64,000 nucleotides of DNA, from NCBI GenBank assembly GCA_963789945.1, contig CAWBMN010000018.1:213542-277541 (forward strand), given 5' to 3'. Positions 9,066 through 60,299 of this stretch are shown one piece after another (the stretch's first letter is position 1; each line of letters starts with the position of its first letter). Made by a program: the position numbers and the translations under genes. Source of the stretch: an uncultured beta proteobacterium. Lineage in GTDB: Bacteria > Pseudomonadota > Gammaproteobacteria > Burkholderiales > JACQAP01. The notes under the pieces were generated by a model. That model worked only from the letters and a program-made list of their open reading frames with translations. It was not told the origin of the DNA and made no database searches.

Positions 9066-10151
9066 TTACTCGTGAAAGTCGTACGGACGATGACCGTGGC
9101 GCTTGACCAGCTCGTCGCGTTCCGCCGCCTTCAGGTCCTCGCTTGCCATTTCTTCGACCAGTTTTTCGAAGCTGACTTTGGCGGACCATCCCAGTTTGCT
9201 TTTCGCCTTCGACGGATCGCCCAACAGCGTCTCGACCTCTGCCGGACGGAAGTAGCGCGGATCGACTGCCACGCGCACGCGGCCAGTGTCATCGATGGCT
9301 TTCTCGTCCAGTCCTTTGCCCGACCACTTCAGTTTTATGCCGAGCTTTTGCGCTGCGAGATCCACGAAATCGCGCACGTTGTTCTGGATGCCGGTGGCAA
9401 TCACAAAATCCTCGGGCTGCGGCTGTTGAAGCATCAGCCACTGGGCCTCGACGTAATCCCGGGCGTGGCCCCAGTCGCGCCTGGCGTCGAGATTGCCAAG
9501 GTAGACGCAGTCCTGCAGGCCCAGCTTGATGCGGGCCAGCGCCCGCGTGATCTTGCGGGTGACGAAGGTCTCCCCGCGGACGGGGCTTTCATGATTGAAA
9601 AGTATGCCGTTGCAGGCGAACATTCCATAGGCTTCGCGGTAGTTGACCGTGATCCAGTAAGCGTAGACCTTGGCCACTCCATATGGCGAGCGAGGATAGA
9701 ACGGCGTGGTTTCGTTTTGCGGGGTCTCACGTACCAGGCCATACATTTCCGATGTCGAAGCCTGGTAGAAGCGGCTCTTCCTTTCCAACCCCAGAATGCG
9801 GATCGCTTCCAGCATGCGCAGCGCACCCAGCGCGTCCGAATTTGCGGTGTACTCGGGTTCTTCGAAGGATACCGCGACGTGGCTCTGCGCCGCGAGGTTG
9901 TAGATTTCGTCCGGCTGCACCTGCTGGATGATCCTCACCAGGCTGCTGGAATCGGTCATGTCCCCATAGTGGAGAATGAAATTGCGATTGCTTACGTGCG
10001 GGTCCTGGTAAAGATGATCTATGCGATCGGTATTGAACAGGGAGGTGCGGCGCTTGATGCCGTGCACCTCGTAGCCCTTGGCAAGCAGGAATTCGGCGAG
10101 GTATGCACCATCCTGCCCGGTAATGCCGGTGACAAGCGCGACTTTACTCAT
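9066..10151 (-). CDS. gmd: GDP-mannose 4,6-dehydratase
   Basis: [51 protein letters not shown], and [18 protein letters not shown]. Confidence 0.95.
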
Positions 10152-10339
10152 TCTGCGGTGACGGGCACATCTGTATACTCATGTGGGTAAACGAAACCGG
10201 TTTTCGGCGGCGACCATGATCCGATCGGTGCAAAGCGAAAGATTGAAGCAGAAATGGTCTCGGCAAATGGTGCGATTCTAAGCGATTTGCACCGCGCCGG
10301 AAAGAAAACCCCCGTTGCGACCACCCCTCACAACCTGAC

Positions 10340-11761
10340 ATGAACATGATTTTCCCCGTCGTTCTCTCCGGCGGATCCGGTACGCGCCTGTGGCCGCTTT
10401 CACGAACGCTGCTGCCCAAGCAGTTCCTGCCTCTGGTGACGCGCAAGACGATGTTGCAGGAAACGCTGTTGCGCCTGGGCGGAATGGCCGGACTGCAGGC
10501 GCCACTGGTGGTGTGCAGCAACGACCATCGCTTCCTCGCCGCGGAGCAGTTGCGCGAAATCGGCGTGACCTCGATGGCGCAGATCCTCGAACCCGCAGGC
10601 CGCAATACCGCACCGGCTGTGGCGGTTGCCGCGCTTTGCGTCGCCGATTCGGACCCGCAGGGGATCATGCTGGTGTTGCCGGCCGACCACCTTATCCGCG
10701 ACGTCGCCGGGTTCCATGAGGCCGCCGGCAAAGCGGCGACGCTCGCCGGCGCAGGCCGCCTGGTCACCTTCGGCATCGTCGCGCGCGAACCGGAAACCGG
10801 TTATGGCTACATCGAGCGCGGAGAAGCCGTCCCCGGCACAAAAAACGCCTACCGGGTTGCGCGGTTCGTGGAAAAACCGGATGAAGCGCATGCGCGCGAG
10901 TTCATTGCCTCGGGGCGCTTCTACTGGAACAGCGGCATGTTCGTTTTCGCCGCCTCGCGCTACCTCGAGGAGCTGGGCAAGTATCGCCCTGACATCCTCA
11001 AGGCCGCAAAGGAGGCGTGGAGCAGCAGCACCCGCGATCTCGACTTCGTCCGCCTGGGCGAGACCGCTTTTCTTGCCTCGCCTGCGGAATCGATCGACTA
11101 CGCTGTGATGGAGAACACCCGCGACGCCGCTGTGGTCGAGGCCGACATCGGCTGGAACGACATCGGCTCGTGGACCGCGCTGTGGCAGGCGGGATTGCCG
11201 GACGCGGCGGGCAACGTCACGCTCGGCGATGTACACGCCGACAATGTGCGCAACTGCTATGTCAGGGCGGAAGACCGGCTGGTTGCGGCGGTCGGGGTCG
11301 AGGACCTGATCATCGTCGAAACCGCGGACGCGGTGCTGGTCACCCACAAGGATTGCTCCCAGGACGTGAAGAAAGTCGTCGAATCGCTCAAATCAAAGCA
11401 GCGCGACGAATATCTGGTGCACAAGCGAGTCTACCGGCCGTGGGGCTATTACGAAGGCCTGGATACCGGCGAGCGCTTCCAGGTCAAGCGCATCATGGTC
11501 AAACCCGGATCGAAGCTCTCCCTGCAGATGCATCATCACCGCGCGGAGCACTGGGTGGTGGTATCCGGGACCGCGAGAATCGTGCGCGGTGAACAAACGC
11601 TGCTGCTTTCCGAGAACGAATCAACTTACATCCCGCTCGGCACAAAACACCGGCTGGAAAACGTGGGCAAGGTGCCGCTGCACCTGATCGAAGTGCAGTC
11701 GGGCAGCTACCTCGGGGAAGACGATATCGTGCGCTTCGAGGACGACTACAAACGATCGTGA
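10340..11761 (+). CDS. manC: mannose-1-phosphate guanylyltransferase / mannose-6-phosphate isomerase
   Basis: VVLSGGSGTRLWPLSR at the N-terminus and a C-terminal cupin region (HHHRAEHWVVVSGTA, ENESTYIPLGTKHRLEN). Confidence 0.9.
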   Translation: MNMIFPVVLSGGSGTRLWPLSRTLLPKQFLPLVTRKTMLQETLLRLGGMAGLQAPLVVCSNDHRFLAAEQLREIGVTSMAQILEPAGRNTAPAVAVAALCVADSDPQGIMLVLPADHLIRDVAGFHEAAGKAATLAGAGRLVTFGIVAREPETGYGYIERGEAVPGTKNAYRVARFVEKPDEAHAREFIASGRFYWNSGMFVFAASRYLEELGKYRPDILKAAKEAWSSSTRDLDFVRLGETAFLASPAESIDYAVMENTRDAAVVEADIGWNDIGSWTALWQAGLPDAAGNVTLGDVHADNVRNCYVRAEDRLVAAVGVEDLIIVETADAVLVTHKDCSQDVKKVVESLKSKQRDEYLVHKRVYRPWGYYEGLDTGERFQVKRIMVKPGSKLSLQMHHHRAEHWVVVSGTARIVRGEQTLLLSENESTYIPLGTKHRLENVGKVPLHLIEVQSGSYLGEDDIVRFEDDYKRS

Positions 11762-11793
11762 CGGCATGAACGACCGTTCCAACCCGTGAACCG

Positions 11794-12795
11794 ATGAGCA
11801 GCGGCCAGCGCCCGCGGAGTATCCTGCTGGTCAAGATGTCCTCGCTGGGCGACGTCGTCCACAACCTCCCGGTTGCCACCGACATTCGCCGCCATCTCCC
11901 CGATGCGACTATCGACTGGGTGGTCGAGGAAGCATTCGCCGCGATCCCGCTCCTGCATCCCGGGGTGCGGCGAGTCATCCCGGTGGCGATTCGCCGCTGG
12001 CGCAAGCGCCCTTTCGCTGAGGACACCCGCAGGGCGTTCGGCGATTTCCGGCAGGCGCTGCGCCAGGACCGCTACGATGCCGTCATCGACACTCAGGGGT
12101 TGCTCAAGAGCGCGATCCTGGCCTGCATGGCGCGCGGCCGCCGTCATGGGCTTGACTGGAAAAGTTCGCGCGAGCCCCTACGGCTGTTTTACGACCGCAC
12201 GTACTCGATTCCCTGGTCCCTGCACGCGGTTGACCGCAACCGGCTGCTCGCCGCTCAGGCGCTGGGCTACCCGCGTTCCGAAAGCTTGCAGTACGGGATC
12301 GCCTCGCGGACCGGGGATGTCGCAACGCTATCAGCGCAACTCCCGGCGGGATCCCTGGATCGACCGTTCGCGGTGCTGCTGCATTCCACCAGCGCACAGA
12401 GCAAGGAGTGGCCGGAACAACGCTGGTCGAAGCTTGGCGCGCAGCTTGCGGACAAGGGCATCGCATCGATATTGCCGTTCGGCAGCGAAGCCGAACGCCT
12501 GCGCAGCACCCGACTCGCGGCACACATTCCGGGGGCAGTGGTTCCGCCCAGGCTGGGCCTGGAATCGCTGGCCGCGTTGCTGTCCCGGACGCATGTGGCG
12601 GTCGGTGTCGACACCGGACTCACTCATCTCGCCGTTGCACTGGGCAGGCCGTCGATCGGCCTTTACTGCGCCACTGATCCGGCTGCAACCGGCCTTTACG
12701 GCTCGCCTGTCGCCGTCAGCCTTGGCGGCGTCGGCCATGCACCTTCAGTGGAGGAAGTATTCGCCGAAGTGGAACGCCTGCGGAGCGTTGCTTGA
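11794..12795 (+). CDS. waaC: LPS heptosyltransferase I
   Basis: ILLVKMSSLGDVVHNLPVATDIR and VGVDTGLTHLAVALGRP, typical of the GT9 family. It is adjacent to waaA. Confidence 0.8.
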   Translation: MSSGQRPRSILLVKMSSLGDVVHNLPVATDIRRHLPDATIDWVVEEAFAAIPLLHPGVRRVIPVAIRRWRKRPFAEDTRRAFGDFRQALRQDRYDAVIDTQGLLKSAILACMARGRRHGLDWKSSREPLRLFYDRTYSIPWSLHAVDRNRLLAAQALGYPRSESLQYGIASRTGDVATLSAQLPAGSLDRPFAVLLHSTSAQSKEWPEQRWSKLGAQLADKGIASILPFGSEAERLRSTRLAAHIPGAVVPPRLGLESLAALLSRTHVAVGVDTGLTHLAVALGRPSIGLYCATDPAATGLYGSPVAVSLGGVGHAPSVEEVFAEVERLRSVA

Positions 12796-14039
12796 ACCGG
12801 CTGCTCTATTCCGCAGCGCTCTACCTATTGTTGCCTTGGGCGCTATTGCACTTGTGGCTGCGTTCACGGCGGCAGCCGGCTTATCTGGAACACATTGCCG
12901 AGCGTTTCGGTTTCTCCGATGAACAGCCGGGGAATCCGCTGATCTGGGTACATGCGGTCTCAGTCGGCGAGACTCAGGCCGCTGAACCGCTGGTCAAGGC
13001 GCTGCGTCGGCGCCACCCTGCGCACCGCATCCTGCTTACGCATACGACGCCCACCGGCCGCCAGACCGGCATCGAGTTGTTCGGCGACGGCGTCAGCCGT
13101 TGTTACCTCCCCTACGATTTTCCGTTCGCAGTGAAGCGCTTCCTGCGCCGTTTCCGCCCACAAGTCGGCATCGTGATGGAAACCGAAATCTGGCCGAACC
13201 TGATCGAACACTGCCATCGCCACAATATCCCTGTCTATCTGGTCAACGCCAGGATGTCGGGCAGATCCGCGCGCGGCTACGCACGTTTTCGCGGGCTGGC
13301 CGCAAGTTCGTTGCGCAAGCTCGCCGGGATCGGCGCGCAGACCGAACGCGATGCCACCCGGTTCAGCGAACTCGGTGCCGAAGCGGTCACGGTCACCGGC
13401 AACATCAAGTTCGATCGTACGGCGCCGCCGGAAATGCTGACTCTGGGAACGCAGCTTCGGGAGTTGTTCGGCATCCGCAAAGTGTTTCTCGCTGCCAGCA
13501 CACGCGAAGGTGAAGAGGCGTTGATCCTTGACGCGCTCGCCTCTCTGGAGATGGCCGAACTGCTCGTCGTCTTCGTGCCGCGACATCCGCAGCGCTTCGA
13601 TGAAGTTGGCGCCCTGCTCAGGCAACGCGGCCACGCCTTCGTGCGCCGCAGCGAAGGCCGGCCCGTCGCAACGGATATTCGTTTCGTGCTCGGCGACTCG
13701 ATGGGGGAGATGTTTGCCTATTACAGCGCGAGCGACGTCGCTTTTGTCGGTGGCAGCCTTCTGCCGCTCGGCGGCCAGAACCTGCTCGAGGCCTGCGCGG
13801 TCGGCCGCCCCGTCATCGTCGGACCGCACACGTTCAATTTCGAAGAGGCCACCGAAAACGCGATCGAGGCCGGCGCGGCGCTGCGGGTTGAGGATGCGCG
13901 AGCGTTGGCCGGGGCCGTCGCTTCACTGTTTCGCGACCCCGCACGTCGCGAAGCGATGGCGGAGGCGGGAAGGCGCTTCACTCAAAGGCATCGCGGCGCG
14001 ACTGAACGGACGATGGCGATGTTGAAGTGGAAAGAGTAG
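12792..14039 (+). CDS. waaA: 3-deoxy-D-manno-octulosonic acid (Kdo) transferase
   Basis: WVHAVSVGE, METEIWPNLI, and GGSL.PLGGQNLLEA. The start overlaps the waaC stop. Confidence 0.9.
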   Translation: MNRLLYSAALYLLLPWALLHLWLRSRRQPAYLEHIAERFGFSDEQPGNPLIWVHAVSVGETQAAEPLVKALRRRHPAHRILLTHTTPTGRQTGIELFGDGVSRCYLPYDFPFAVKRFLRRFRPQVGIVMETEIWPNLIEHCHRHNIPVYLVNARMSGRSARGYARFRGLAASSLRKLAGIGAQTERDATRFSELGAEAVTVTGNIKFDRTAPPEMLTLGTQLRELFGIRKVFLAASTREGEEALILDALASLEMAELLVVFVPRHPQRFDEVGALLRQRGHAFVRRSEGRPVATDIRFVLGDSMGEMFAYYSASDVAFVGGSLLPLGGQNLLEACAVGRPVIVGPHTFNFEEATENAIEAGAALRVEDARALAGAVASLFRDPARREAMAEAGRRFTQRHRGATERTMAMLKWKE

Positions 14040-14042
14040 ACG

Positions 14043-14220
14043 GTGCGAGGTGCGAGGTGCGAGGTGCGAGGTGCGAGGTGCGAGGTGCGAGGTGCGAGGT
14101 GCGAGGTGCGAGGTGGCGAGGTGCGAGGTGCGAGGTGCGAGGTGCGAGGTGCGAGGTGCGAGGTGCGAGGTGCGAGGTGCGAGGTGCGAGGTGCGAGGTG
14201 CGAGGTGCGAGGTGCGAGGT
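14043..14220. repeat. tandem heptamer array (GTGCGAG) x25, left arm of cassette A
   Basis: Counted by hand: 10 perfect units (14043-14112), one 8-nt variant GTGGCGAG (14113-20), and 14 perfect units (14121-14218). The array starts 3 nt after the waaA stop. Confidence 0.95.
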
Positions 14221-14250
14221 AAAAGTGTAGTCCACCGGCTATCGGCCGGT

Positions 14251-14408
14251 CGCCTTTCTCTGAACATCGGGCACTGCGCACTCAGCACTGCTTTTTTTGA
14301 GCAGGCGGCGCACCGAGCACTGTGCACCGCCTTTCTCTGAACATCGGGCACTGCGCACTCAGTCTGCTGAGCACCGCGCACCGAGCACGGAGCACCGCCC
14401 TTTCTCCG
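14251..14408. repeat. degenerate right arm of cassette A with internal direct repeats
   Basis: An exact 35-nt direct repeat, cgcctttctctgaacatcgggcactgcgcactcag, occurs at 14251-14285 and 14328-14362, with a partial third copy at about 14396. It is interspersed with GCACYSM/GAGCACC heptamers, which are degenerate reverse complements of GTGCGAG. Confidence 0.8.
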
Positions 14409-14410
14409 CG

Positions 14411-15022
14411 TCAACGCTTTCCTGGCCGGCCATTGGCCGGCTGCACGACCAGGTGAACGCGTTGATCGCTGGGCCCTGTGGGAATTGATTCGACAACCTG
14501 CAGATCGAACGCCGCGGCAATCCGCGGAGTCTTTGCCTTCAGGCCCGCCAGCAAGCGATCGTAGAACCCGCCACCATACCCCAGGCGTTCGCCCGCAGCG
14601 GTGAACGCGACCCCGGGCACCAGCAGGAAATCGACCGCAGAAGGCGGCACGATGGGGCAGCGCTCCGCCGGCTCGCGGATTCCCCAGACGCCGGCGACAA
14701 GGTCACTGTCCAGGTTGCCGACTTCGCGCAATTCGAGCATGCGCGCCGCGCGGTTGATTCGCGGCAGCAACAGCTGCTTGCCGGAAGCCGCGACATCGGA
14801 ACAGAAAGCAGCGCTGTCGAACTCACTGCCGAACGATGCGTAGGCGCAAACCACTCCGGCTGCGAGATACTGCGGCAGCGCGAGCAGTTTGGCAGTGATG
14901 ATGCGCGAATCGCGGTTCCGCGTTTCCGCGTCCAGCGCATCGCGCCGCGCGATCACGCTTGCGCGCAATGCTTTCTTGGCGGACCGCAGCGCTTCTTCAG
15001 ACCCGGAATCGGCGTTGCGCAT
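14411..15022 (-). CDS. 5-formyltetrahydrofolate cyclo-ligase
   Basis: LVPGVAFTAAGERLGYGGGFYDR is the signature C-terminal motif of the MTHFS family. Confidence 0.8.
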   Translation of the reverse strand: MRNADSGSEEALRSAKKALRASVIARRDALDAETRNRDSRIITAKLLALPQYLAAGVVCAYASFGSEFDSAAFCSDVAASGKQLLLPRINRAARMLELREVGNLDSDLVAGVWGIREPAERCPIVPPSAVDFLLVPGVAFTAAGERLGYGGGFYDRLLAGLKAKTPRIAAAFDLQVVESIPTGPSDQRVHLVVQPANGRPGKR

Positions 15023-20193: not shown

Positions 20194-20370
20194 GATTCGA
20201 CGCAAAGACGCCAAGACGCAAAGAAAAGCAAAAGTGGCATGTGAAACCAGCCGCCCGTTCAACGGGCCGACGGCATGTGGTCCAAGAAATCGAATGGCGA
20301 CCGATTTGACCTTGCGCAATCCCTCACTGCAATCTTGGGTTTCTTTGCGCCTTTGCGTCTTTGCGTCAAG
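20194..20370. repeat. hairpin cassette B (GACGCAAA-type arms)
   Basis: The left arm, gattcgacgcaaagacgccaagacgcaaagaaaagcaaaag (20194-20234), is inverted relative to the right arm, tttctttgcgcctttgcgtctttgcgtcaag (20340-20370). The core is about 105 nt. Confidence 0.85.
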
Positions 20371-21250: not shown

Positions 21251-21773
21251 AGGGCAAGGATGAAGGATGAGGGATGAAGGATGAAGGGAAAAGCAGGGGC
21301 ACCATGCCGAGGGGTTCCGCCGAACTATTGGTTCGAACAAAGCGATTTGCCCTGAGCGTTATCAATCTTTACTCGGCGTTACCGGGCAACACGGTCTGTC
21401 AGGTGCTTGGCAAGCAGCTGTTGAGGTCCGCTACATCCGTCGGCGCGCATTACCGGGAAGCGCAGCGCGCAAAGTCAAGGCCGGACTTTATAAGCAAGGT
21501 CGAAGGAAGTCTTCAGGAACTTGACGAAACGCTCTATTGGCTGGAACTGCTGGAAGAATCCGAAACGGCCGATCGCGCATCAGTCACCCCGTTGAAGTCT
21601 GAGGCCGGGGAACTACTTGCGATATTCGTAACCATCGCGAAGTCTGCGAAAAGAACGTTTACGAAGGAGAAGTAGAGATGTGCCGGTTCGCCTTTTTCGT
21701 TTCATCCTTCATCCTTCATCCTTCATCCCTTCATCCTTGCCCCTCATCCTTCATGCTTCCGCCTTCATCCTTG
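21251..21773. mobile_element. hairpin cassette C (AAGGATG-type arms) carrying a four-helix-bundle ORF
   Basis: The left arm has aaggatg x4.7 (21256-21288). The right arm has ttcatcc repeats plus ccttcatccttgcccctcatccttcatgcttccgccttcatccttg (21701-21773). It lies between the uppP stop and the rhodanese stop. Confidence 0.85.
21274..21675 (+). CDS. four-helix-bundle protein (23S rRNA intervening-sequence protein / Avd-like family)
   Basis: QLLRSATSVGAHYREAQRAKSRPDFISKVEGSLQELDETLYWLELL matches the family signature I recall. The first codons, MKDEGK, are encoded by the repeat arm. An alternative start is ATG 21304. Confidence 0.85.
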   Translation: MKDEGKSRGTMPRGSAELLVRTKRFALSVINLYSALPGNTVCQVLGKQLLRSATSVGAHYREAQRAKSRPDFISKVEGSLQELDETLYWLELLEESETADRASVTPLKSEAGELLAIFVTIAKSAKRTFTKEK

Positions 21774-25778: not shown

Positions 25779-26288
25779 GCAAGAGCAAGGATGAAGGCGG
25801 AAGGATGAAGGATGAAGTAAAGCAGAACGTCAAGCGCGATCTGGTTGGACGCACCAGACGATTCGTGCTTGAAGTGATCATGTTTTACTCGACTCTCCCA
25901 AGCACCACGGTGTGCCAGGTGTTGGGGAGGCAGTTGTTGAGATCAGCGACTTCGGTTGGTGCCCAATACCGTGAGGCCCAACGAGCCAAATCCGGCGCCG
26001 ATTTCGTTAACAAGATTGAAGGCGCACTTCAAGAACTCGATGAAACGGGATATTGGCTGGAGTTACTCGAAGAGTCGGGAAATGCGGATGTAATTGCAGT
26101 TAAACGACTGCAGCTAGAGGACCAGGAATTGCTAAGAATCTTTGTCACAATCGCAAAGTCTTCAAAGAAACAATCGAGAAAGAGGTACCACGTGAAATAT
26201 CACAAGCCTTCATCCTTGCCCCTCATCCTTCATCCTTCCGCCTTCATCCTTGCCCTTCATCCTCCATCCTTCCGCCTTCATCCTTGCC
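25779..26288. mobile_element. hairpin cassette D (AAGGATG-type arms) carrying a four-helix-bundle ORF, inserted between ntrB and ntrC
   Basis: The left arm, gcaagagcaaggatgaaggcggaaggatgaaggatgaag (25779-25817), starts at the first nt after the ntrB stop. The right arm (26207-26288) is a duplicated ccttcatccttgcc...ccttccgccttcatccttgcc block ending 1 nt before the ntrC ATG. Confidence 0.85.
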
Positions 26289-26293
26289 TATGA
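25805..26293 (+). CDS. four-helix-bundle protein (23S-IVS/Avd-like) with an arm-encoded C-terminal tail
   Basis: QLLRSATSVGAQYREAQRAKSGADFVNKIEGALQELDETGYWLELL; I judge it roughly 60 percent identical to the 21274 copy by eye. There is no stop at the position homologous to the 21675 stop. It reads through the right arm ([28 protein letters not shown]), and its TGA overlaps the ntrC ATG (ATGA at 26290-26293). Confidence 0.8.
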   Translation: MKDEVKQNVKRDLVGRTRRFVLEVIMFYSTLPSTTVCQVLGRQLLRSATSVGAQYREAQRAKSGADFVNKIEGALQELDETGYWLELLEESGNADVIAVKRLQLEDQELLRIFVTIAKSSKKQSRKRYHVKYHKPSSLPLILHPSAFILALHPPSFRLHPCL

Positions 26294-27716: not shown

Positions 27717-27973
27717 ACTCCTCACCACGAAGGCACGAAGCTATCGCACACGAAAGTAAAGTCTTACACAAAGCCACGAAGAAGAGCGACAAGAAAGCGA
27801 CTCGTGTAAGAAGCTCACACTTGGCGAATGTCGGCCATCAAAGTCGAACGTGGGCGGATCAAAGGATCACGCAACTCACCAAGCTTCGATCCCCAATTGG
27901 TTTGAGAATTCGTTCTTCTTCGTGTTTCTTCGTGTCCTTCGTGCCTTCGTGGTGAGCCTTTCGTGAGATAGCG
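27717..27973. repeat. hairpin cassette E (CACGAAG-type arms)
   Basis: Left arm ctcaccacgaaggcacgaag (27721-40) plus degenerate units extending to about 27790. Right arm ttcttcttcgtgtttcttcgtgtccttcgtgccttcgtggtgag (27913-56). It lies between the convergent ntrC and xth ends. Confidence 0.85.
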
Positions 27974-32774: not shown

Positions 32775-32973
32775 TCTCACCACGAAGACACGAAGGCACG
32801 AAGAAAAACATTCAAAGTGAATGACTGAACATCGATTCTCGCCAGCACACACTGTCCAAATATATCGGCCGCTTGAGATCAACATCTCCGCATTTGAAGT
32901 TCACTGCACGCCAAAAAGTCAGGTTGGCTAATTTTTTTCGCTCTTCTTCGTGCCTTCGTGTCTTCGTGGTAAG
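32775..32973. repeat. hairpin cassette F (CACGAAG-type arms)
   Basis: Left arm tctcaccacgaagacacgaaggcacgaagaaaaa (32775-32808). Right arm ttcttcgtgccttcgtgtcttcgtggtaag (32944-32973). It sits in the pyrB / pyrC' junction. Confidence 0.9.
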
Positions 32974-41401: not shown

Positions 41402-41652
41402 CTTACCACGAAGACACGAAGGACACGAAGAAGCACGAAGAAGGGCGAAATGTAAATGACTCGTCAAATGCACAATTGTCGACCTTTGGTTGTTTCGGGT
41501 GTGACGACGACAAACCCAAATATTGGAGGCATGCGATAATCCGGGGTTGGCTGAGAGTACGCTTGCTCATCGTTGACCATCAAATATTCTCTTCGCTTTT
41601 CTTCGTGTCCTTCGTGTCTTCGTGGTGAGCATTCTGGTTTTTTCGTGGTGAG
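41402..41652. repeat. hairpin cassette G (CACGAAG-type arms)
   Basis: Left arm cttaccacgaagacacgaaggacacgaagaagcacgaagaagg (41402-44). Right arm ttctcttcgcttttcttcgtgtccttcgtgtcttcgtggtgag (41587-41629), plus a second terminus ttttttcgtggtgag (41638-52). It sits in the pepA / holC junction. Confidence 0.9.
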
Positions 41653-43996: not shown

Positions 43997-46820
43997 ATGG
44001 AACTCGCCAAGAGCTTCGAACCCAGGGACATTGAAGTCCGCTGGTATCCGGTCTGGGAATCACGCGGTTACTTCTCGACCCGCCCGGACCACGATCGCCC
44101 CACCTACTGCATTCAACTGCCGCCGCCGAACGTCACCGGCACGCTGCACATGGGACACGCGTTCCAGCAGACGCTGATGGACGCACTGATCCGCTACCAC
44201 CGCATGCGCGGTCTTAACACCAATTGGGTGGTCGGGACCGATCACGCTGGCATTGCCACCCAGATCGTGGTCGAGCGCCAGTTGGAGTTGGAGGGCAAGA
44301 CCCGCCACGATCTGGGCCGGGAAGAGTTCATGGAACGTGTTTGGGAGTGGAAGAGCCAGTCCGGCGCAACCATCATCCGGCAGATGCGCCGGCTCGGCGC
44401 CTCCGCGAACTGGGACTACGCCGACACGGAAGGCCAGCGCGCCGGCTACTTCACCATGGACGCGAAAATGTCGCACGCGGTGATCGAGGTTTTTGTGCGC
44501 CTGCACGAGCAGGGCTTGATCTATCGGGGAAAGCGGCTGGTGAACTGGGACCCGGTTCTGGGAACGGCGGTCTCCGACCTGGAAGTGGACAGCGAAGAGG
44601 AAGACGGCCGGATCTGGGAGATCCGCTATCCGCTGGCTGATGGATCAGGCAGCCTGGTGGTCGCCACCACCCGTCCGGAAACGATGCTCGGCGACGTGGC
44701 CGTGGCGGTGCACCCGGATGACGAGCGGTACAAGAAACTGGTTGGCAAACAACTGCGGCTGCCGCTCACCGACAGAACCATACCGGTTATCGCGGACGGG
44801 TACGTGGACCCCGAGTTCGGCACAGGCTGCGTCAAGATCACGCCCGCCCATGATTTCAACGACTATGCGATGGGACAGCGACATGGTTTGTCGCCGATTG
44901 GCGTGATGACGCTGGACGCGAGAATGAACGACAACGCTCCGGCACCCTACCGCGGGCTCGACCGCTTCGAAGCGCGCAAGCGCGTGATCGTGGACCTGAA
45001 CAAGCAGGAACTGCTGGTCTCGGAGAAGCCGCACAAACTCAAGGTGCCGCGATCGGGACGCACCAGCGCGATCGTCGAACCGATGCTGACCGACCAGTGG
45101 TTCGTGAAAATGGAAGGGCTGGCCCGGCACGGCCTGGACGCGGTCGCCGAGGGCAGCATCAAGTTTTTTCCTGACCACTGGACCACGACTTATAACCACT
45201 GGCTGGAGAATATCCAGGATTGGTGCATTTCACGCCAGCTCTGGTGGGGCCACCAGATCCCGGCCTGGTACGACGATGCCGGCAACGTATATGTAGGCCG
45301 GAGCGAGGCAGAGATTCGGGAGAAGTACGCCTCTCTCCTCTCTCCTCACTCCTCACTGCGTCGCGACAGCGACGTCCTCGACACCTGGTTCTCCTCGGCG
45401 TTGGTGCCGTTCACGTCGCTCGGCTGGCCGGAGAAAACCAAGGACCTGGACGTCTTTCTTCCCTCCTCGGTGCTGGTCACCGGGTTCGACATCATTTTTT
45501 TCTGGGTCGCGCGCATGGTCATGATGACCCTGCACTTCACCGGCAAAGTGCCGTTTCGACACGTCTATATCAACGCACTCGTGCGCGATGCCGACGGCCA
45601 GAAAATGTCGAAGTCGAAGGGAAACACGCTCGACCCGCTCGACCTGATCGACGGCATCTCGATCGAAGACTTGGTGGCCAAATCGACAGTGGGATTGCTG
45701 CGTGCCGAGCACAGGCAGAAGATCGAAAAGTACGTGCGCAGAAACTATCCGAACGGCATTCCGGCATTCGGCGCCGACGCACTCCGCTTCACCTTTACCT
45801 CGCTCGCCACATTCGCGCGAACGCTCAATTTCGATCTGAGCCGCTGCGAGGGCTACCGCAACTTCTGCAACAAACTGTGGAACGCCAGCCGTTTCGTGCT
45901 GATGAATTGCGAGGGCAAGGACTGCGGGCTCGATGAGCATGCCCCGGAGGATTGCGGCCCCGGGAGTTACCTCGACTTTTCCCAGGCCGACCGCTGGATC
46001 GTCAGCCAGTTGCAGCGCACCGAGGCAGAAGTCGGTAAAGGCTTTGCCGACTACCGCTTCGACAATGTCGCCAGCGCCATCTACAGGTTCGTCTGGGACG
46101 AGTACTGCGACTGGTACCTCGAGATCGCGAAAGTGCAGTTGCTGAATCGGCGCCGAGGCGCAGCAGCGCGCCACGCGGCGCACGCTGCTGCGGGTGCTGG
46201 AAGCCACGTTGCGGCTCGCACACCCGGTCATCCCGTTCATCACCGAGGAACTTTGGCAGAATGTTGCGCCGCTGGCCGGCCGCCATCCGGGCGGCGAGGC
46301 CTCGATCATGGTTCAATCCTATCCGGTATCGCAGCCCGAGCGTATCGACACAAAGGCGGAAGCCTGGGTCGCCCAGCTCAAATCATTGGTCGAGGCCTGC
46401 CGCGCGTTGCGCGGCGAAATGTCGCTTTCCCCGGCGCAGCGGGTGCCGTTGGTCGCCGCCGGGAACGCGGCCATGTTGCGCGAGTTCGCCCCCTGCCTGA
46501 AGGTGCTGGCGAAGCTTTCTGACGTCGAAGTCGTCGACGCGCTGGCACCGACAACGAATGCCGGCGCCGCGCCGGTGCGGATCGTCGGCGACTTTCGTCT
46601 GATGCTGAAGATCGAGGTAGACGTCGCTGCCGAGCGAGAGCGCCTACACAAAGAGATTGCGCGGCTCGAAAGCGAAATCGCCAAAGCTAGCAGCAAGCTC
46701 GCCAACGCCGGTTTCGTGGAGCGCGCACCGGCAAACGTCGTCGCCCAGGAAAAAGAGCGGTTGTCCGGCTTCACCGGCACGCTGGAGAAAATCAGGGCGC
46801 AACTCGCCACGCTTACCTGA
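43997..46820 (+). pseudogene. valS: valine--tRNA ligase with a broken reading frame near the C-terminal domain
   Basis: The HIGH (TGTLHMGHA) and KMSKS motifs are present. After ...[11 protein letters not shown] the track ORF turns into Arg/Ala nonsense. The true continuation, [36 protein letters not shown]...coiled coil, is in ORF 46194..46820. The frames switch at about 46148. Confidence 0.85.
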
Positions 46821-46838
46821 GCCACTCCAAAAACAACA

Positions 46839-47378
46839 CTCACCACGAAGGCACGAAGAACACGAAGAAACACGAAGAAGAACAGGAATCCTTAAATTAG
46901 AGGCCAACCGTTGAACGTGTCTTCACCGCTGTCGAGGGAAATCGAGGAATTGTCTCGAAATCTGGTCGATTCTGCGTTTAAAGTCCACCAGACTCTTGGC
47001 CCAGGCTTGCTTGAATCGGTCTACGAAGCCTGCCTGTGTGTAGAACTTAAGAAACGAGGCATCAGATACAAGTCTCAGGCACCGATACCTCTCGTCTATG
47101 AAGGTGTCTCTATCGAAGCAGGATTGCGTCTCGATCTGCTTGTCGAGGGCAGCATTGTTCTCGAAATCAAATCAGTCGAGAGGCTGTTGCCGGTTCATCA
47201 AAGTCAGTTGTTGACGTACTTGAAACTTGCCGATTTGCACTTGGGCTTGCTCATCAATTTCAATGTTGCCATGTTCAAGCAAGGCGTGCGACGGATCATT
47301 CGCTGAGCAATGCCATCGCTCTTCGTTCTCTTTGCTTTTCTTCGTGTTTCTTCGTGTTCTTCGTGCCTTCGTGGTGAG
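46839..47378. mobile_element. hairpin cassette H (CACGAAG-type arms) carrying an intact GxxExxY ORF
   Basis: The left arm 46839-46880 and right arm 47337-47378 are complementary at 41 of 42 positions by hand count. It lies between the valS stop and the MFS start. Confidence 0.9.
46911..47306 (+). CDS. GxxExxY protein (PD-(D/E)XK nuclease-like)
   Basis: FKVHQTLGPGLLESVYEACL contains GxxExxY. RLDLLVEGSIVLEIKSV fits D...ExK. QLLTYLKLADLHLGLLINF is the family C-terminus. The gene is AT-richer than its surroundings. Confidence 0.85.
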   Translation: MNVSSPLSREIEELSRNLVDSAFKVHQTLGPGLLESVYEACLCVELKKRGIRYKSQAPIPLVYEGVSIEAGLRLDLLVEGSIVLEIKSVERLLPVHQSQLLTYLKLADLHLGLLINFNVAMFKQGVRRIIR

Positions 47379-47395
47379 AATTTTGGTTTTCGCGC

Positions 47396-48640
47396 ATGAA
47401 CCATGCTTTAAGGGCGTTCAGGCACCGGAACTTCCGCCTGTTTTATGTCGGCCAGGCAATTTCGCTGATCGGCACCTGGATCCATCAGATTGCACTCGCC
47501 TGGCTGGTGTACCGCACCACCGGCTCCGGCTTCCTGCTGGGGCTGGTCACTTTCTGCAACCAGGTTCCGCTGCTTGTCGTCATGCCGTTTGCGGGCCTGC
47601 TCAGCGACCGCTACGACCGGCGCAGGATTCTTATCATCGCGCATGCGCTGGCGGCGCTGCAGGCGCTGGCGCTGGGCATCCTCACGCTGTCGGGCGCAAT
47701 CCAGACGTGGCAGATTCTGCTGCTCGGACTCCTGTACGGCGTCATCATGGCTTTCGAAACACCGGCCCGGCAGTCGCTCATCAGCCAGATGGTTGCATCC
47801 AGGGAGGATCTGCCCAATGCCATCGCGCTGAACTCATTCCTGATGAACAGCGGCAGACTGGTCGGCCCGTCGATCGCGGGTCTGCTGCTGGTGTTCGTGA
47901 GCGAAGGCTGGTGCTTTCTCGTCAACGCGGTGAGCTTCTTCGCGGTAATCGTAGCGGCAGTCATGATGAAGCTGGAGCCGAGAAAAGTGGCAACCAGAAC
48001 CGTATCGCTGCTTGCGGGGCTGAGCGAGGCGGCGGGCTATGCGTGGAACGCGCGCCCCATCAGGGTGTTCCTGTTGCTGGTGGCATGGCTGAGCCTGACG
48101 GCGACACCGTATCCGGTGCTGATGCCGATTTTCGCGAAGGACGTGTTCCACGGCGGCGCGCATACCCTGGGTTTTCTGGTCGGCTGCGCAGGTCTCGGTG
48201 CCGTGATCGGCACCGGGTTCCTTGCCACGCGGCCGAACGTGCTGGGATTGAGCAAATTGATCGCGGCGACCTCGGCGACGGCCGGCATAGCGCTGTTCCT
48301 GGTCGGGGTATCGAAGATCTACTGGCTGTCGCTGTTGCTGATGGCCTGCCTGGGATTCGGCATCATCGTCACCGCCGCTTCGGTGAACATGATGCTGCAG
48401 ACCATGGTGGAGGAGGACAAGCGCGGACGGGTCGTCAGTTTCTACGCGATGGCCTTCCTGGGCGTGGCGCCGTTCGGTGGATTGATGGCCGGCGCGCTGG
48501 CCAGCCACATCGGCGCACCGGCGACCGCGATGATCAGCGGCGGTTGCTGCCTGCTGGGCGCGTTACTGCTTTCCCGCCACCTGCCCGCCATTCGCACCGA
48601 CCTGCATCGCGCTCTGATCCGATTGCCAGATGAAACTTGA
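47396..48640 (+). CDS. MFS transporter
   Basis: 414 aa, about 12 hydrophobic segments, and an N-terminal FRHRNFRLFYVGQAISLIGTW motif typical of MFS_3-type exporters. Confidence 0.85.
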   Translation: MNHALRAFRHRNFRLFYVGQAISLIGTWIHQIALAWLVYRTTGSGFLLGLVTFCNQVPLLVVMPFAGLLSDRYDRRRILIIAHALAALQALALGILTLSGAIQTWQILLLGLLYGVIMAFETPARQSLISQMVASREDLPNAIALNSFLMNSGRLVGPSIAGLLLVFVSEGWCFLVNAVSFFAVIVAAVMMKLEPRKVATRTVSLLAGLSEAAGYAWNARPIRVFLLLVAWLSLTATPYPVLMPIFAKDVFHGGAHTLGFLVGCAGLGAVIGTGFLATRPNVLGLSKLIAATSATAGIALFLVGVSKIYWLSLLLMACLGFGIIVTAASVNMMLQTMVEEDKRGRVVSFYAMAFLGVAPFGGLMAGALASHIGAPATAMISGGCCLLGALLLSRHLPAIRTDLHRALIRLPDET

Positions 48641-48651
48641 AAAACGCAAAT

Positions 48652-48856
48652 TTCACCACGAAGGCACGAAGACACGAAGAAAATTCGGAAGAATGATTTC
48701 TGCAGCGGGCCGATGTCGAAATCAGCCGGATAACGGACCTTATCCAACCCCTTCAGATTGTGCCCTTTGCCGCCTTGTCTTTCTTCGTGTCTTCGTGTCT
48801 TCGTGGTGAGACTTTGACTTTTCGTCTTGCGGATGGCTTCGTGCCTTCGTGGTGCG
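48652..48856. repeat. hairpin cassette I (CACGAAG-type arms) with an extra outer terminus
   Basis: Left arm 48652-48683 and right arm 48778-48810. A 46-nt extension (48811-48856) ends in a second cttcgtggtgcg terminus. Confidence 0.85.
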
Positions 48857-50410: not shown

Positions 50411-50688
50411 TCTCACCACGACGCTACAAAGCCATACGCAAAACGAAAAATCAAAGTCTCACCACGAAGACACGAAGAACACGAAGAAAACCTCAACAAA
50501 AATCCTGAAATTGGGCTTGCGGTGCGGAACACACTATCCACAAGTGTCCAGCAACTGAGAGACCTCGATTGGTGAGCGCTGCGCAATCGGGTTCGCGAGG
50601 GCAGGTAACTCTGTGCATTCCCGCGTTCAATCGATATCGTCTGGCCTTCCTTCGTGTTTCTTCGTGTTCTTCGTGTCTTCGTGGTGAG
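50411..50688. repeat. hairpin cassette J (CACGAAG-type arms) with an extra outer terminus
   Basis: An outer terminus plus 46-nt extension at 50411-50456 is the inverted homologue of 48811-48856. The inner left arm is 50457-50491 and the right arm is 50646-50688. Confidence 0.85.
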
Positions 50689-51732: not shown

Positions 51733-52759
51733 TCACGCCTTCAGTTTCTGGGTGAAGGCGATGAACTGGTCGAGCTTGGCTTTCGCGGCGCCGCTGGAAA
51801 TGACTTCAAGCGCCTTCTGCACGCCGGCTTCGTGGCTGTCCGCAATACCGGCTGCATAGATTGCCGCGCCGGCATTGAGCGCCACGATGTCGCGCGCCGG
51901 GCCGGGCTTGTTCGATAGCGCTGCAACGAGCATGTCCCTGGACTCAGCGCCGTCTTTGACCTGAATCCCGGAAAGATCGCTGGTTTGCATACCGAACTGT
52001 CTTGGGTGAATCGTGTACTCGCGCACTTCATCGTTCTTGAGTTCGCCGACCAGCGTTTCGCCGGCCACCGAGATCTCGTCCAGCCCCTCCGTGCCGTAAA
52101 CCACCAGGACATGGCGGCTGCCCAGCCGCTGCAATACCCGCGCCTGGATACCAACGAGGTCGGGGTGGAACACGCCCATGAGCTGGTTCCGGGCTCCGGC
52201 CGGATTGGTGAGGGGCCCGAGGATGTTGAACAGGGTGCGCACGCCCAACTCGCGCCGAACCGGTGCCGCATGCTTCATCGCGCTGTGATGGTTGGGAGCG
52301 AACATGAATCCCACGCCGATCTGGTCGATGCATTGCGCCACCTGCGCTGGAGTCAGGGCAAGGTTCACGCCCAGCGCCTCGAGCACGTCGGCGCTGCCCG
52401 ATTTGCTGGAAACCGAGCGGCCACCGTGCTTTGCGACCTTTGCGCCGGCCGCTGCCGCGACGAACGCAGCTGCAGTGGAAATATTGAAGGTGTGCGCGCT
52501 GTCGCCACCGGTGCCGCAGGTATCCAGAAGGTGGGCATGGTCGGCCACCTGCACCTTGGTCGAGAACTCGCGCATGACCTGCGCGCGCTGCGGCGATCTC
52601 GCCGATGGTCTCCTTTTTCACCCGCAAACCGATGATGATCGCGGAGATAAGCGTCGGCGACATCTCGCCGTTCATGATCTGGCGCATCAGCGCCAGCATC
52701 TCGTCGTGGAATATCTCGCGATGCTCGATAACCCTTACCAATGCTTCCTGCGGCGTCAT
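51733..52759 (-). pseudogene. trpD: anthranilate phosphoribosyltransferase with a broken reading frame
   Basis: The N-terminal 59 aa ([13 protein letters not shown]...[10 protein letters not shown]) are in ORF 52028..52759. The rest ([18 protein letters not shown]..) is in ORF 51733..52575. The switch lies in the (GC)4 run at 52581-52588. Confidence 0.85.
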
Positions 52760-52827: not shown

Positions 52828-53041
52828 CTTACCACGAAGGCACGAAGACACGAAGAAGGCGAGTGATCGTATATTCTCGACCCGATACCGCCGTGGCGCT
52901 GATGGGACGTTCGACCCATTTGCGGTCAACTTGGAACGGACCACTCCGAGATCGAAGGTCCCGCGATGCAGACACTGAAATGAGGCATAGCAGTTTAACG
53001 TGCTCATGCATTTCTTCGTGTCTTCGTGCCTTCGTGGTGAG
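52828..53041. repeat. hairpin cassette L (CACGAAG-type arms)
   Basis: The left arm 52828-52858 and right arm 53011-53041 are complementary at 29 of 31 positions by hand count. It sits in the trpG / trpD junction. Confidence 0.9.
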
Positions 53042-53629: not shown

Positions 53630-53823
53630 GAGGTTCTAACCTTCTGAAGGCAGCACCATCGGATGGTAGTCGGTGCGCCGCCGATACGCGGCGGATGAAA
53701 CAGGATCAGGCGGCAGGCTTACGCCAGCGCCAATGCAGAATGGCAAGAACCGGATGCGGAGTGTTCACGGCGCGTGATTATAGGCGCAGAAAGCTGTTTT
53801 CAGGCAACGCCGGAATCCGTCGA

Positions 53824-54414
53824 TCACTTCGCCGCATAGGCTTGTCCATCAGCGGGAAGACGCCGCCGCCATGCAGCCGTCTCGATGATCAGGGGCTCGC
53901 GGCCATAATCATAAGGCCAGCGATCCACCACGATGGCTGTCTGGCTGCGCAGATCAAGGATCTGGGCAGACCAGTGTTGGGCAAAGACAATCAGAAAAGA
54001 GCGATATGCCTGGGGCATTGGTCGGTGAAACTGCAGGAATCCGCGGGCGCCGAGAGCCTGAAGAAAGGAACTGACCGATGTGGCGTGATCGATACAGTCC
54101 ATCTTCCCGGGGCCGTCCGGATCGTGCGGGAAATTTCTCCCACGATCGTTCTCAACAGGCGCCACGTCCGCGGCATACTCGAAAAACTTCTGAACCGCTT
54201 TCCCGATCTTCCGGCGTTCCTCCTCGGGAGTACGTGCATCGACCAGGATGGTTTGAACTTCGGTGAGTTGGTCTTGTGTCAGCCGAAACTGCACCCTGTA
54301 CTTGCAGCCGTAACCGTGGCAAATCGTCAATAGATCCGCATCCGACGCAAAGCCACGGGACATTGCGAGCGATAGGGCTGCGAACCAAAGAACCCGGAAC
54401 ATCGCCACGGACAT
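53824..54414 (-). CDS. hypothetical exported protein
   Basis: 196-aa ORF with a signal-like N-terminus (MFRVLWFAALSLAMSRGFA), located between trpE and trpG. The Cys107/His147/Asp164 spacing resembles a papain/transglutaminase-like triad; this is inference only. Confidence 0.5.
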   Translation of the reverse strand: MSVAMFRVLWFAALSLAMSRGFASDADLLTICHGYGCKYRVQFRLTQDQLTEVQTILVDARTPEEERRKIGKAVQKFFEYAADVAPVENDRGRNFPHDPDGPGKMDCIDHATSVSSFLQALGARGFLQFHRPMPQAYRSFLIVFAQHWSAQILDLRSQTAIVVDRWPYDYGREPLIIETAAWRRRLPADGQAYAAK

Positions 54415-54441
54415 TACAGTTCCTGCCTTCCCCCGACTAAA

Positions 54442-54834
54442 CTCTCACCGCCTTATTCAAGCGCGCTTGCATTCAGGCCCCTTCGCTCCAGGGTCGTTAC
54501 CCGCTTCATCGCTACTACGGGCCTGTCCGACTCCCGGACCGAGTCCACCGGCGGTTTTTTCTTCCCGGGGCTTCACCGGGCGGATCGCTCCACCGCAGTG
54601 TCCGAGTCGCTACCTGCTGAACGGGAAATTCGCAGTGTAAACTCCTTTCAGTTCACAAGATCAGCCAGGCTTGGCCTGGCGCACCTGAGGGCGCGGAGGA
54701 AAGCCAAAAGCAGAGAATTCGAGAGGCCAACCAGGTCGCGCTGCTTCGCTCTGCACCAGGTTTGTTTTCTTGTTCCCTTGGCTCTTGCTATTCTTGCGGT
54801 TCCCCCGCGTCCCCTGCGTCCTCCGCGGTGAGAG
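54442..54834. repeat. degenerate cassette Q (one clear ACGCRGGG-type arm)
   Basis: The right end, ttcttgcggttcccccgcgtcccctgcgtcctccgcggtgagag (54791-54834), has the tandem-unit plus GGTGAG terminus architecture. At the left end only ctctcaccgcc (54442-52) is recognisable. Confidence 0.35.
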
Positions 54835-54839
54835 CTTCC

Positions 54840-57172: not shown

Positions 57173-57336
57173 CTCACCACGAAGACACGAAGAAGACCGG
57201 ATGCTTCAGCAGAGACCAATCGTCAGAGTACGTCGTAGCTGAAACCGGGGTTTCATTGAAAGCTTACCTGCAGGGAATTTCCATGGCCAAAGCGGCTACT
57301 TCGCAGTTCTTCGTGTCTTCGTGCCTTCGTGGTGAG
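57173..57336. repeat. hairpin cassette M (CACGAAG-type arms)
   Basis: The left arm (57173-57196) has 2 units and the right arm (57307-57336) has 3 units. The core is homologous to that of cassette N. Confidence 0.85.
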
Positions 57337-58546: not shown

Positions 58547-58690
58547 TCTCACCACGAAGGCACGAAGAGACGAAGGAAACCGAATGCCTAAGTGGAGACC
58601 AACCGTCAAACTGCGTCGTAGCTGAAACCGGGGTTTCATTGAATGCTTACCTGCACGGAATTTCCATAGCCAAAGCGGCTACTTCGCGAG
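58547..58690. repeat. hairpin cassette N (CACGAAG-type), right arm missing
   Basis: Left arm tctcaccacgaaggcacgaagagacgaaggaa (58547-78). The core (58579-58690) aligns with the core of M with about 13 mismatches in about 110 nt by hand alignment. No cttcgtg arm follows. Confidence 0.8.
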
Positions 58691-58701
58691 AAGCGCGTGG
58701 A

Positions 58702-60141: not shown

Positions 60142-60299
60142 TCTCACCACGAAGGCACGAAGACACGAAGAAAACCCCGGAACCAATCAGTAGAGAAAAT
60201 GGGGCCGGCGGAACTAAGGGGACACTACCTGCGAGCGTTGATTGCTTTGGTAGAACTTCGACTCTGCATTTCTTCGTGTCTTCGTGACTTCGTGGTGAG
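60142..60299. repeat. hairpin cassette O (CACGAAG-type arms)
   Basis: The left arm 60142-60174 and right arm 60269-60299 are complementary at 30 of 31 positions by hand count. It lies between the convergent mltA and tonB-like ends. Confidence 0.9.

Follow-up and report, generated by a model that had tools for sequence, protein, structure and literature searches.

The four helix bundle (S23p) family TIGR02436 / PF05635 first became known from the intervening sequences (IVSs) of 23S rRNA in Leptospira and Coxiella. The IVS of Coxiella is bounded by terminal inverted repeats that form a stem of 28 base pairs (bp) and is cleaved by RNase III within this stem. It carries two to three tandem GACAGAT heptamers before its open reading frame (ORF), their number depending on the strain, and has a GC content below that of the host; its origin and mobility are unknown (PMC4990558). 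In the Correia elements of Neisseria, a hairpin is bound and cut by RNase III (PMC2649163). Here we describe cassette H, located at positions 46839-47378 of a stretch of 64,000 nucleotides (nt) from an uncultured beta proteobacterium of the Burkholderiales (assembly GCA_963789945.1, contig CAWBMN010000018.1; the whole stretch is called the window in the following). In this cassette, inverted arms of tandem CACGAAG heptads enclose a gene of the GxxExxY/PDDEXK_3 family, which is listed as function-unknown in the survey naming it (PMC3424549). In the literature on GxxExxY, PDDEXK_3, TIGR04256/PF13366 and the arm sequences we found no account of the function of this family or of heptad arms, and the family comprises 22,253 representative clusters at 50% identity (E <= 1e-3). 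On balance we favour a reading in which IVS-like selfish hairpin cassettes form a widespread class, apparently not described before, with H as one of its ordinary representatives and not as a master copy, which a first-pass annotation of the window had proposed.

Cassette H and its nuclease gene

Cassette H lies between valS and a gene of the major facilitator superfamily (MFS). Its parts, including the codons of the motif residues as placed by alignment columns, are the following:

46827-46838, + strand: outer imperfect extension of the left arm, A-rich (CCAAAA...); CCAAAA pairs with TTTTGG at 47384-47389
46839-46884, + strand: left arm, 46 nt, CTCAC and then four CACGAAG at 46844, 46852, 46861 and 46871 with the spacers G, AA and AAA; found by inverted-repeat search, 96% complementary
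46885-46910, + strand: leader within the loop, with a Shine-Dalgarno-like GAGG at 46900-46903, 7 nt ahead of the TTG start
46911-47306, + strand: GxxExxY/PDDEXK_3 ORF, TTG start, 131 residues
47013-47015, 47133-47135 and 47163-47165, + strand: codons of E35, D75 and E85
47169-47171, 47205-47207 and 47217-47219, + strand: codons of K87, Q99 and Y103
47307-47332, + strand: tail from the stop codon to the right arm
47333-47378, - strand: right arm, reverse-complementary to the left one, with four CTTCGTG on the + strand at 47340, 47350, 47359 and 47367, then GTGAG
47379-47395, + strand: T-rich outer flank (AATTTTGGTTTTCGCGC), reaching the MFS start codon at 47396

The arms are complementary at 44 of 46 positions, including a perfect stretch of 41 nt, and the heptads are spaced 8, 9 and 10 nt apart from outside to inside. 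In an RNA fold of 46822-47395 the arms are fully paired (-221 kcal/mol, z -6.8), as is 46827-46832 with 47384-47389, and a T-rich tract follows the stem. The GAGG site is in the loop, outside the stem. H fills the valS-MFS spacer entirely and touches neither reading frame. Its GC content is 0.48 compared to 0.61 for the window, and the GC content at third codon positions (GC3) of its ORF is 0.57 compared to 0.74-0.83 in the neighbouring genes. A sigma-70-like promoter was not found in a scan of 46600-47500, a terminator scan around H gave two terminator-like matches, which is chance level, and Rfam at gathering thresholds reported only a tRNA, and no rRNA, in the whole window.

The RecB/Cas4/lambda-exonuclease branch of PD-(D/E)XK nucleases is characterised by the motifs E, D, ExK and QxxxY. 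The ORF of H is matched over its full length by the hidden Markov model (HMM) PF13366 (PDDEXK_3; E 2.5e-42, 144.4 bits at a cut-off of 22, profile positions 2-117 of 117), and TIGR04256 (GxxExxY) matches with E 1.3e-42 and 144.8 bits (cut-off 35). In a family alignment of 64 sequences with 43-91% identity to H, the columns G30, G32, E35, Y38, D75, E85, Y103, N116, F117 and R128 are invariant, and K87 and Q99 are conserved in at least 90%. H has GLLESVY (G32-L-L-E35-S-V-Y38), D75, E85-x-K87, Q99-L-L-T-Y103 and LLINF; since the residues concerned fall on invariant or at least 90% conserved columns, the full E / D / ExK / QxxxY set is kept. The AlphaFold2 model of the protein reached a predicted local distance difference test (pLDDT) score of 94.9 and a predicted template modelling score of 0.87. 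A Foldseek search of this model against the PDB delivered nothing at E <= 0.001 (all E >= 0.02); the top matches, none of them significant, are all PD-(D/E)XK nucleases, namely LHK and lambda exonucleases, AddAB, Cas4 SSO0001 (template modelling score 0.55) and the catalytic domain of I-Bth0305I (E 0.33). No match was obtained with the H protein in sequence searches of the PDB and of PHROGs, and PADLOC gave no significant model, the best being Cas4 (E 0.014 over 44 residues). Going by profiles and model, the ORF appears to be an intact, RecB/Cas4-like nuclease gene of the PD-(D/E)XK type; what the nuclease does, we infer.

In these respects the first-pass annotation, which was made from the letters alone, proved reliable. 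This applies to the complete ORF of 131 residues inside CACGAAG arms of four units each, the retention of GLLESVY, D...ExK and LLINF on invariant or nearly invariant columns, the higher AT content compared to the host, and the placement between valS and the MFS gene without disruption of either. The nuclease-like character of the protein is supported by both family profiles, the confident model, the catalytic residues in a proper alignment and a ratio of nonsynonymous to synonymous substitution (dN/dS) of about 0.15.

An identity as Cas4 was considered and rejected: there is no significant profile match, the protein has only two cysteines (C41, C43) and no four-cysteine Fe-S cluster, and the neighbours are valS and the MFS gene, with no CRISPR-cas. 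Among the proteins from the family search, many members of ~265-295 residues carry two GxxExxY domains in tandem; these may be fused dimers, which would fit a dimeric nuclease.

A TrpD-anchored scan of GTDB genomes gave syntenic loci from uncultured Burkholderiales/Betaproteobacteria metagenome-assembled genomes; loci other than the window are cited below by L numbers. Against orthologues at the same site, dN/dS of the H ORF is 0.148 (L166, synonymous divergence dS 0.25) and 0.152 (L168, dS 0.33); against paralogues in L001, with whose ATG the TTG start of H is aligned, it is 0.03-0.11. The flanking MFS gene has a dS of 0.35 (L166) and 0.87 (L168). The low dN/dS, together with the divergence from the same-site orthologues, indicates that the ORF is selected and has not arrived recently; the gene is functional and under purifying selection. 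One of the comparisons shows a higher similarity in the ORF than in its flanks, a hint of exchange.

Heptad arms in the window and across the family

CACGAAG occurs 81 times in the window, where 11.1 +/- 2.9 occurrences are expected, and this number was reached in 0/100 shuffles. They form ten arm pairs (H is one of these), a cassette at 58553 that has just its left arm, and an additional outer right-arm fragment (48837-48851), which amounts to 11 cassettes in ~33 kb. The ten cassettes besides H, given without strand, are:

27721-27956: ORF-less cassette between convergent genes; left arm degenerate, right arm with four heptads
32776-32973: ORF-less cassette with 3+3 heptads and a core of 142 nt
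41402-41629: ORF-less cassette; its core type recurs elsewhere in relatives
48652-48856: ORF-less cassette downstream of the MFS gene; the extra outer right-arm fragment 48837-48851 makes it a nested structure
50458-50688: ORF-less cassette downstream of trpC; core non-homologous in L005
51527-51715: ORF-less cassette in the trpD-trpC spacer
52828-53041: ORF-less cassette in the trpG-trpD spacer
57173-57336: ORF-less cassette; core family shared with the 58553 cassette
58548-58700: cassette that has lost its right arm; core homologous to that of the 57178 cassette (81% mean column identity, nearly identical across the shared core)
60143-60299: ORF-less cassette with 3+3 heptads and a core of 101 nt

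On the outer side of its first heptad, every cassette in the window is flanked by an A-rich stretch (for example CAAA(T/G)NCTCAC), and all are AT-richer than the window (GC 0.43-0.51 vs 0.61). They are located directly after stop codons, and every spacer of trpE-G-D-C (minus strand) is occupied. H was described as the only CACGAAG cassette with a complete ORF, and neither tblastn nor HMM searches revealed another GxxExxY ORF in a CACGAAG cassette of the window. Remnants of such a gene are likewise absent from the ten other CACGAAG cassettes (tblastn with word size 2; family HMM on six-frame translations). Between the leader and tail of H and the short cores, the best matches are 14 nt long with p ~0.005-0.03 in 20 tests, which is not significant. 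The short cores form families of their own: those at 57178 and 58553 belong to one, the 41407 type occurs at four sites, and a five-member family is found in L001.

Further arm families are present. Two more ORF cassettes, at 21255-21770 and 25785-26290, have arms of tandem GGATGAA/GGATGAG heptads, and GGATGAAGG occurs 17 times in the window compared to 0.67 expected. Their ORFs (21274-21675 and 25805 to ~26200; GC3 0.63 and 0.55) belong to the four helix bundle family TIGR02436 (E 2e-22 and 5e-21). A short ORF-less cassette at 20201-20365 has three CGCAAAG/CGCCAAG units against three CTTTGCG, so that at least three arm families exist in this genome. The trpE-trpG spacer (53630-54839) extends over 1.2 kb here, compared to 22 nt in L011. 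It contains a minus-strand ORF of 196 residues with a signal-peptide-like N-terminus (53824-54414) and, directly after trpE at ~54680-54835, a degenerate cassette with CGCGGAG-type arms.

Among betaproteobacteria, 19 GxxExxY genes were found near trp, all of them on the trp strand, and 17/19 are enclosed by inverted arms of three to four heptads or octads. The units are CACGAAG, CACGGAG, CACCAAG, CACAGAG, CGCAGAG, CGCAAAG and CGCGAAAG. The usable metagenomic loci numbered 75, with 46-61% identity to H; a strict flanking-inverted-repeat test was passed by 42 of them, and 33 of these 42 have a periodic unit. Two isolates from elsewhere in the bacteria have the same structure: in Sphingomonas parapaucimobilis the gene is placed between fabD and fabG in arms of three CGCGAAG, in Bacteroides finegoldii between radA and the gene of an FAD protein in arms of three CACAGAG, the arm end being TTCAC in both. 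The N-terminal extensions of many family proteins in databases are translated arms (HEDTK, HQDTK, TEDTE, AEDAE). By a crude estimate, the upstream neighbour is co-oriented in 65/80 loci.

In a neighbour-joining tree the arm type follows the ORF lineage; pairs of genes with the same heptad are 54.9% identical and pairs with different heptads 49.8%, a gap reached in 0/2000 permutations. The comparison shows arms common to ORF-bearing and ORF-less cassettes within a genome, and an arm type that follows the ORF lineage across genomes. Judged in this way, H appears as a typical member of a widespread heptad-arm cassette design. A large share of the sampled family genes resides in one structure: inverted C[A/G]CNNAG arrays that end in TCAC, sit in tight operon junctions and are shared with ORF-less copies. 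The family is rare on viral contigs (5 loci) and on plasmids (8/72,556, all non-mobilisable), and an origin from phages or plasmids was dropped for this reason. On the viral contigs L172 and L174, distant GxxExxY genes (37-38% identity) lie inside inverted arrays of 9-nt units (GATGAACCG; AAATGAAAC), which indicates that the design persists at another repeat length.

The same junctions in related genomes

An empty valS-MFS site was looked for in relatives and found in L012 (TrpD 81%), where only 16 nt separate the valS stop from the MFS ATG. In L011 (TrpD 81%), trpG and trpD overlap (ATGA), the trpD-trpC spacer has 5 nt, the trp junctions altogether 0-5 nt, and no cassette is present across 20.8 kb. 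An H-type ORF with 91-93% amino acid identity is found at the valS-MFS site of L005, L166/L167 and L168/L169. L007 (TrpD 95%) has the flanks and outer arms of H at this site, but three heptads and a GxxExxY ORF that is only 61% identical. The arms at this site in L004 are made of CACCAAG; its GxxExxY gene is decayed and internally deleted, and a short cassette is nested there. From these loci (L012, L005 with L166-L169, L007 and L004) we conclude that the valS-MFS site started out empty and was filled some time ago, and that its contents can be exchanged between constant arms.

The short cassettes behave in a similar manner. In L005 (96.5% nucleotide identity) the arms are kept, and the cores are non-homologous at two of three shared short-cassette sites, including the one downstream of trpC. 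The 41407-type core is also present in L005 (downstream of the MFS gene), in L007 (in the trpG-trpD spacer, inverted) and in L166 (next to the H right arm). In L008, L009, L010, L013, L039 and L063 it is the trpD-trpC spacer that holds GxxExxY genes, and L001 has a short-cassette family of five members with 83% mean identity in both orientations. The supposition that the family is mobile or at least dynamic fits these results, as contents differ at the same site in near relatives. Comparison of the syntenic loci shows the cassettes as insertions into tight junctions of housekeeping operons (valS-MFS, trpE-G-D-C), which measure 0-16 nt in the outgroups. It shows further that the contents between the arms are exchangeable, comprising different ORFs or short cores, in either orientation and sometimes nested.

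Nesting is common: a complete inner cassette is found inside or beside an older arm reduced to one or two outer heptads (48837-48851; L166 3090-3395; L004 3714-3794). This suggests that arms may be preferred targets of insertion or recombination. L001 has, within 5 kb (9600-14600), three GxxExxY paralogues, which are 71-81% identical in amino acids with a saturated dS, as well as at least five short cassettes; in one of its ORF cassettes, CACGGAG makes up the two outer heptads on either side. As a possible mobiliser, a Y1_Tnp gene of L001 (17045-17884) was examined and rejected, there being no CACGAAG arms around the gene. In the trpD-trpC cassettes of L008 (10840-11290), L009 (2237-2640), L010 (1414-1850) and L013 (2119-2600), the GGAGG ribosome-binding site comes from the innermost heptad (..CGGAGGAAA), whose end is 5-15 nt ahead of the ATG; such a site would be buried in the stem. 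The ORF of L010 has an in-frame TAG near its end. In L007, a small GC hairpin (CCCCCTTTAGGGGG) lies between heptads at 4170-4215 in the left arm of the trpG-trpD cassette.

Two genes of the window are split. valS consists of two overlapping ORFs in different frames (43997-46522 / 46194-46820) with a shift at ~46150-46200, ~650 nt upstream of the stop and unrelated to H, and trpD likewise (52028-52759 / 51733-52575; shift at ~52575-52600). Since the relatives have intact genes, these frame breaks are probably assembly indels and not signs of pseudogenes.

Mode of action, alternatives and known systems

In the reading which we favour, two inverted arms and the core between them make up a cassette. 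A conserved end, (T)TCAC, would be followed in each arm by two to four C[A/G]CNNAG heptads 8-11 nt apart, and the core would be either a non-coding segment of ~100-160 nt or a small gene, here that of a minimal RecB/Cas4-like PD-(D/E)XK nuclease, GxxExxY. H would have no promoter of its own and would be read through from valS, with a stem of 43-46 bp forming in the transcript. RNase III would probably cut this stem, as 23S rRNA IVSs and Correia elements suggest by analogy. The host messages would thereby be separated, and the loop set free would carry the ORF together with a GAGG site of its own. An exchange of cores could come about when arms recombine out of register, and the varying heptad number would be explained as well. 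As a speculative addition, possible but doubtful in our view, the nuclease might recognise and process the heptad arms as DNA, by end resection or by cleavage of extruded structures, and so stimulate a homing-like copying of its own cassette.

Several results weigh against this reading. No direct repeat that could be a target-site duplication was detected beside the 11 cassettes of the window, for which a near-isogenic pair of filled and empty sites is lacking, and the flanks are only weakly inverted, A-rich on one side and T-rich on the other. Of the known transposase classes (DDE, HUH, serine or tyrosine recombinase) none is encoded in H, whose only ORF is PDDEXK_3. Among the arm mismatches, G.U-compatible changes on the sense strand are not in excess (46 against 54, p 0.48), so that the complementarity of the arms is not obviously kept for a hairpin in the sense RNA; a constraint at the DNA level may lie behind it. 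The strict inverted-repeat test was failed by 33 of the 75 loci, many visibly with heptads and some perhaps truly armless. The association of arm type and ORF lineage is significant but modest (5 percentage points). Processing by RNase III and co-transcription of H are analogies. Arms of 30-46 bp could recombine via ordinary RecA pathways with no dedicated enzyme. The cassettes with four helix bundle genes indicate that the design works without a nuclease, which weakens the claim that GxxExxY mobilises the arms.

The first-pass annotation had seen in H the best candidate for an autonomous or recently arrived master copy with the short cassettes as derivatives. In this explanation the GxxExxY nuclease would be the transposase of an autonomous element, and the ten short cassettes would be non-autonomous MITEs (miniature transposable elements with inverted repeats) that originated from H by internal deletion. 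H and the short cassettes do have their arms in common, those of H being the longest and cleanest, the outgroups have empty sites, and the internally deleted GxxExxY cassette of L004 demonstrates that such deletions occur. However, coding remnants are missing in all short cassettes, leader and tail of H are not significantly similar to the short cores, and these are independent families that move between sites. A recent arrival is contradicted by the same ORF at the site in at least three related strains, from which H has been diverging up to a dS of 0.25-0.33, which is similar to the dS of the flanking MFS gene or lower. Against autonomy stand the lack of any known transposase class and the four helix bundle protein, which occupies the same kind of cassette in the window; being non-enzymatic, it argues against the ORF as the enzyme that moves the arms. 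To our knowledge, no PD-(D/E)XK protein transposes DNA alone (TnsA needs TnsB). We regard the master element as improbable. A far more radical doubt, that inverted repeat and ORF came together by chance or through faulty assembly, could draw on the likely indel errors of the source assembly at valS and trpD; it is refuted by the same cassette in the independent assemblies L005 and L166-L169, and the enrichment of CACGAAG over all shuffles as well as the same design in isolates of other phyla likewise stand against it.

More serious, though still unlikely, is the explanation that the arms are host-useful regulatory hairpins resembling repetitive extragenic palindromic (REP) sequences, bacterial interspersed mosaic elements or Correia elements, which serve in the processing, stabilisation or termination of mRNAs and are spread and kept uniform by ordinary recombination, GxxExxY being a trapped passenger with an unrelated cellular role. 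The position right after stop codons, the filling of operon spacers, the T-rich tails after the stem, the very high density, the unrelated four helix bundle cargo and an arm length sufficient for RecA recombination all agree with this. Yet GxxExxY is associated with heptad arms across phyla, with an arm type tracking the ORF lineage, so that a chance capture is hard to credit; the composition of the ORF is foreign (GC3 0.57 vs ~0.8), and the close outgroup L011 manages the same operons without any cassette. Very improbable in our estimation is a toxin-like or defence nuclease whose expression is controlled by the double-stranded RNA stem; until a change in RNase III activity or stress, the ribosome-binding site or the whole message would be locked away or destroyed. 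The stem-buried GGAGG sites supplied by the innermost heptad in many relatives and the weak similarity to Cas4 could be read in this sense, but the GAGG of H is in the loop, PADLOC and PHROGs gave no significant result, the cassette has no partner antitoxin or immunity gene, and the family is rare on plasmids and viral contigs.

If the selfish hairpin cassettes exist as we propose, they tie GxxExxY, the four helix bundle/S23p proteins and the rRNA intervening sequences into one architectural class. GxxExxY/PDDEXK_3 is among the largest bacterial families still of unknown function, and the cassette would give it a testable context with the arms as candidate substrate. The cassettes would also explain many spurious N- and C-terminal extensions of proteins in databases (HEDTK..., ...SSRPLR) and the hypervariable spacers in housekeeping operons of uncultured Burkholderiales. 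A wider idea, unlikely in our view, is that GxxExxY proteins are heptad-specific nucleases that drive homing-like copying or transposition of a whole superfamily of hairpin cassettes not recognised so far, the 23S rRNA IVSs and the four helix bundle (S23p) genes being rRNA-resident or nuclease-less branches. If true, prokaryotes would have a new class of mobile elements based on a minimal RecB-like nuclease, and the 35-year-old question of the origin of IVSs would be answered.

Compared to IVSs, H has in common a long terminal stem (28 bp in Coxiella, 43-46 bp in H) around a loop with one small ORF, tandem heptamers of varying number at the border of stem and ORF (four in H, three in L007 at the same site), a GC content lower than that of the host, and a sporadic distribution. 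The two size classes, ~430-750 nt with and ~100-150 nt without an ORF, are likewise shared (PMC4990558). The differences are the location in a valS-MFS mRNA spacer instead of helix 9, 25 or 45 of the 23S rRNA, the PD-(D/E)XK nuclease in place of a four helix bundle protein, and the dense genome-wide population with one shared arm sequence; rRNA was found beside 0/40 metagenomic GxxExxY loci, and excision by RNase III is here assumed by analogy only. Correia elements, also known as CREE or NEMIS, are similar as short intergenic sequences whose core, variable or conserved, lies between terminal inverted repeats; they are very abundant, co-transcribed with their neighbours and present or absent depending on the strain (PMC2649163). 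Unlike H, they show a duplication of TA at the target, IHF sites and ends that form promoters; they never contain an ORF, and no enzyme gene shares their ends, whereas H-type cassettes have arms made of heptad arrays and no visible duplication, and some carry a gene. Terminal inverted repeats, many dispersed copies and empty sites in relatives are MITE-like features; a 2024 review of MITEs has nothing similar to the heptad cassettes.

In the REPIN-RAYT systems, too, an enzyme gene is bracketed by the repeat of abundant short palindromic intergenic elements, is vertically inherited under purifying selection, and co-varies in its lineage with the repeat type (PMC3116915, PMC5581495). However, RAYTs are HUH/Y1 single-strand transposases and the H ORF is a RecB/Cas4-like PD-(D/E)XK protein, REPIN spacers are short and conserved where the cores described here are 100-160 nt long, diverse and exchangeable, and GxxExxY genes are often present in several copies (three within 3.5 kb in L001). 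With the PD-(D/E)XK homing endonucleases I-Ssp6803I and I-Bth0305I, H shares a small free-standing nuclease carried by a selfish insertion with polymorphism at its fixed site; it differs by being intergenic, outside of introns, inteins or a conserved target gene, and the fold match to I-Bth0305I is weak (E 0.33). Cas4, RecB and lambda exonuclease are similar by the motifs E (in helix 1), D, ExK and QxxxY and as the best structural matches, all below significance, but the H protein has only ~117 residues in the domain, no Fe-S cysteine cluster and no helicase or CRISPR context. In its working, H resembles IVSs, Correia elements and REPIN-RAYT systems, and it is a member of none of them.

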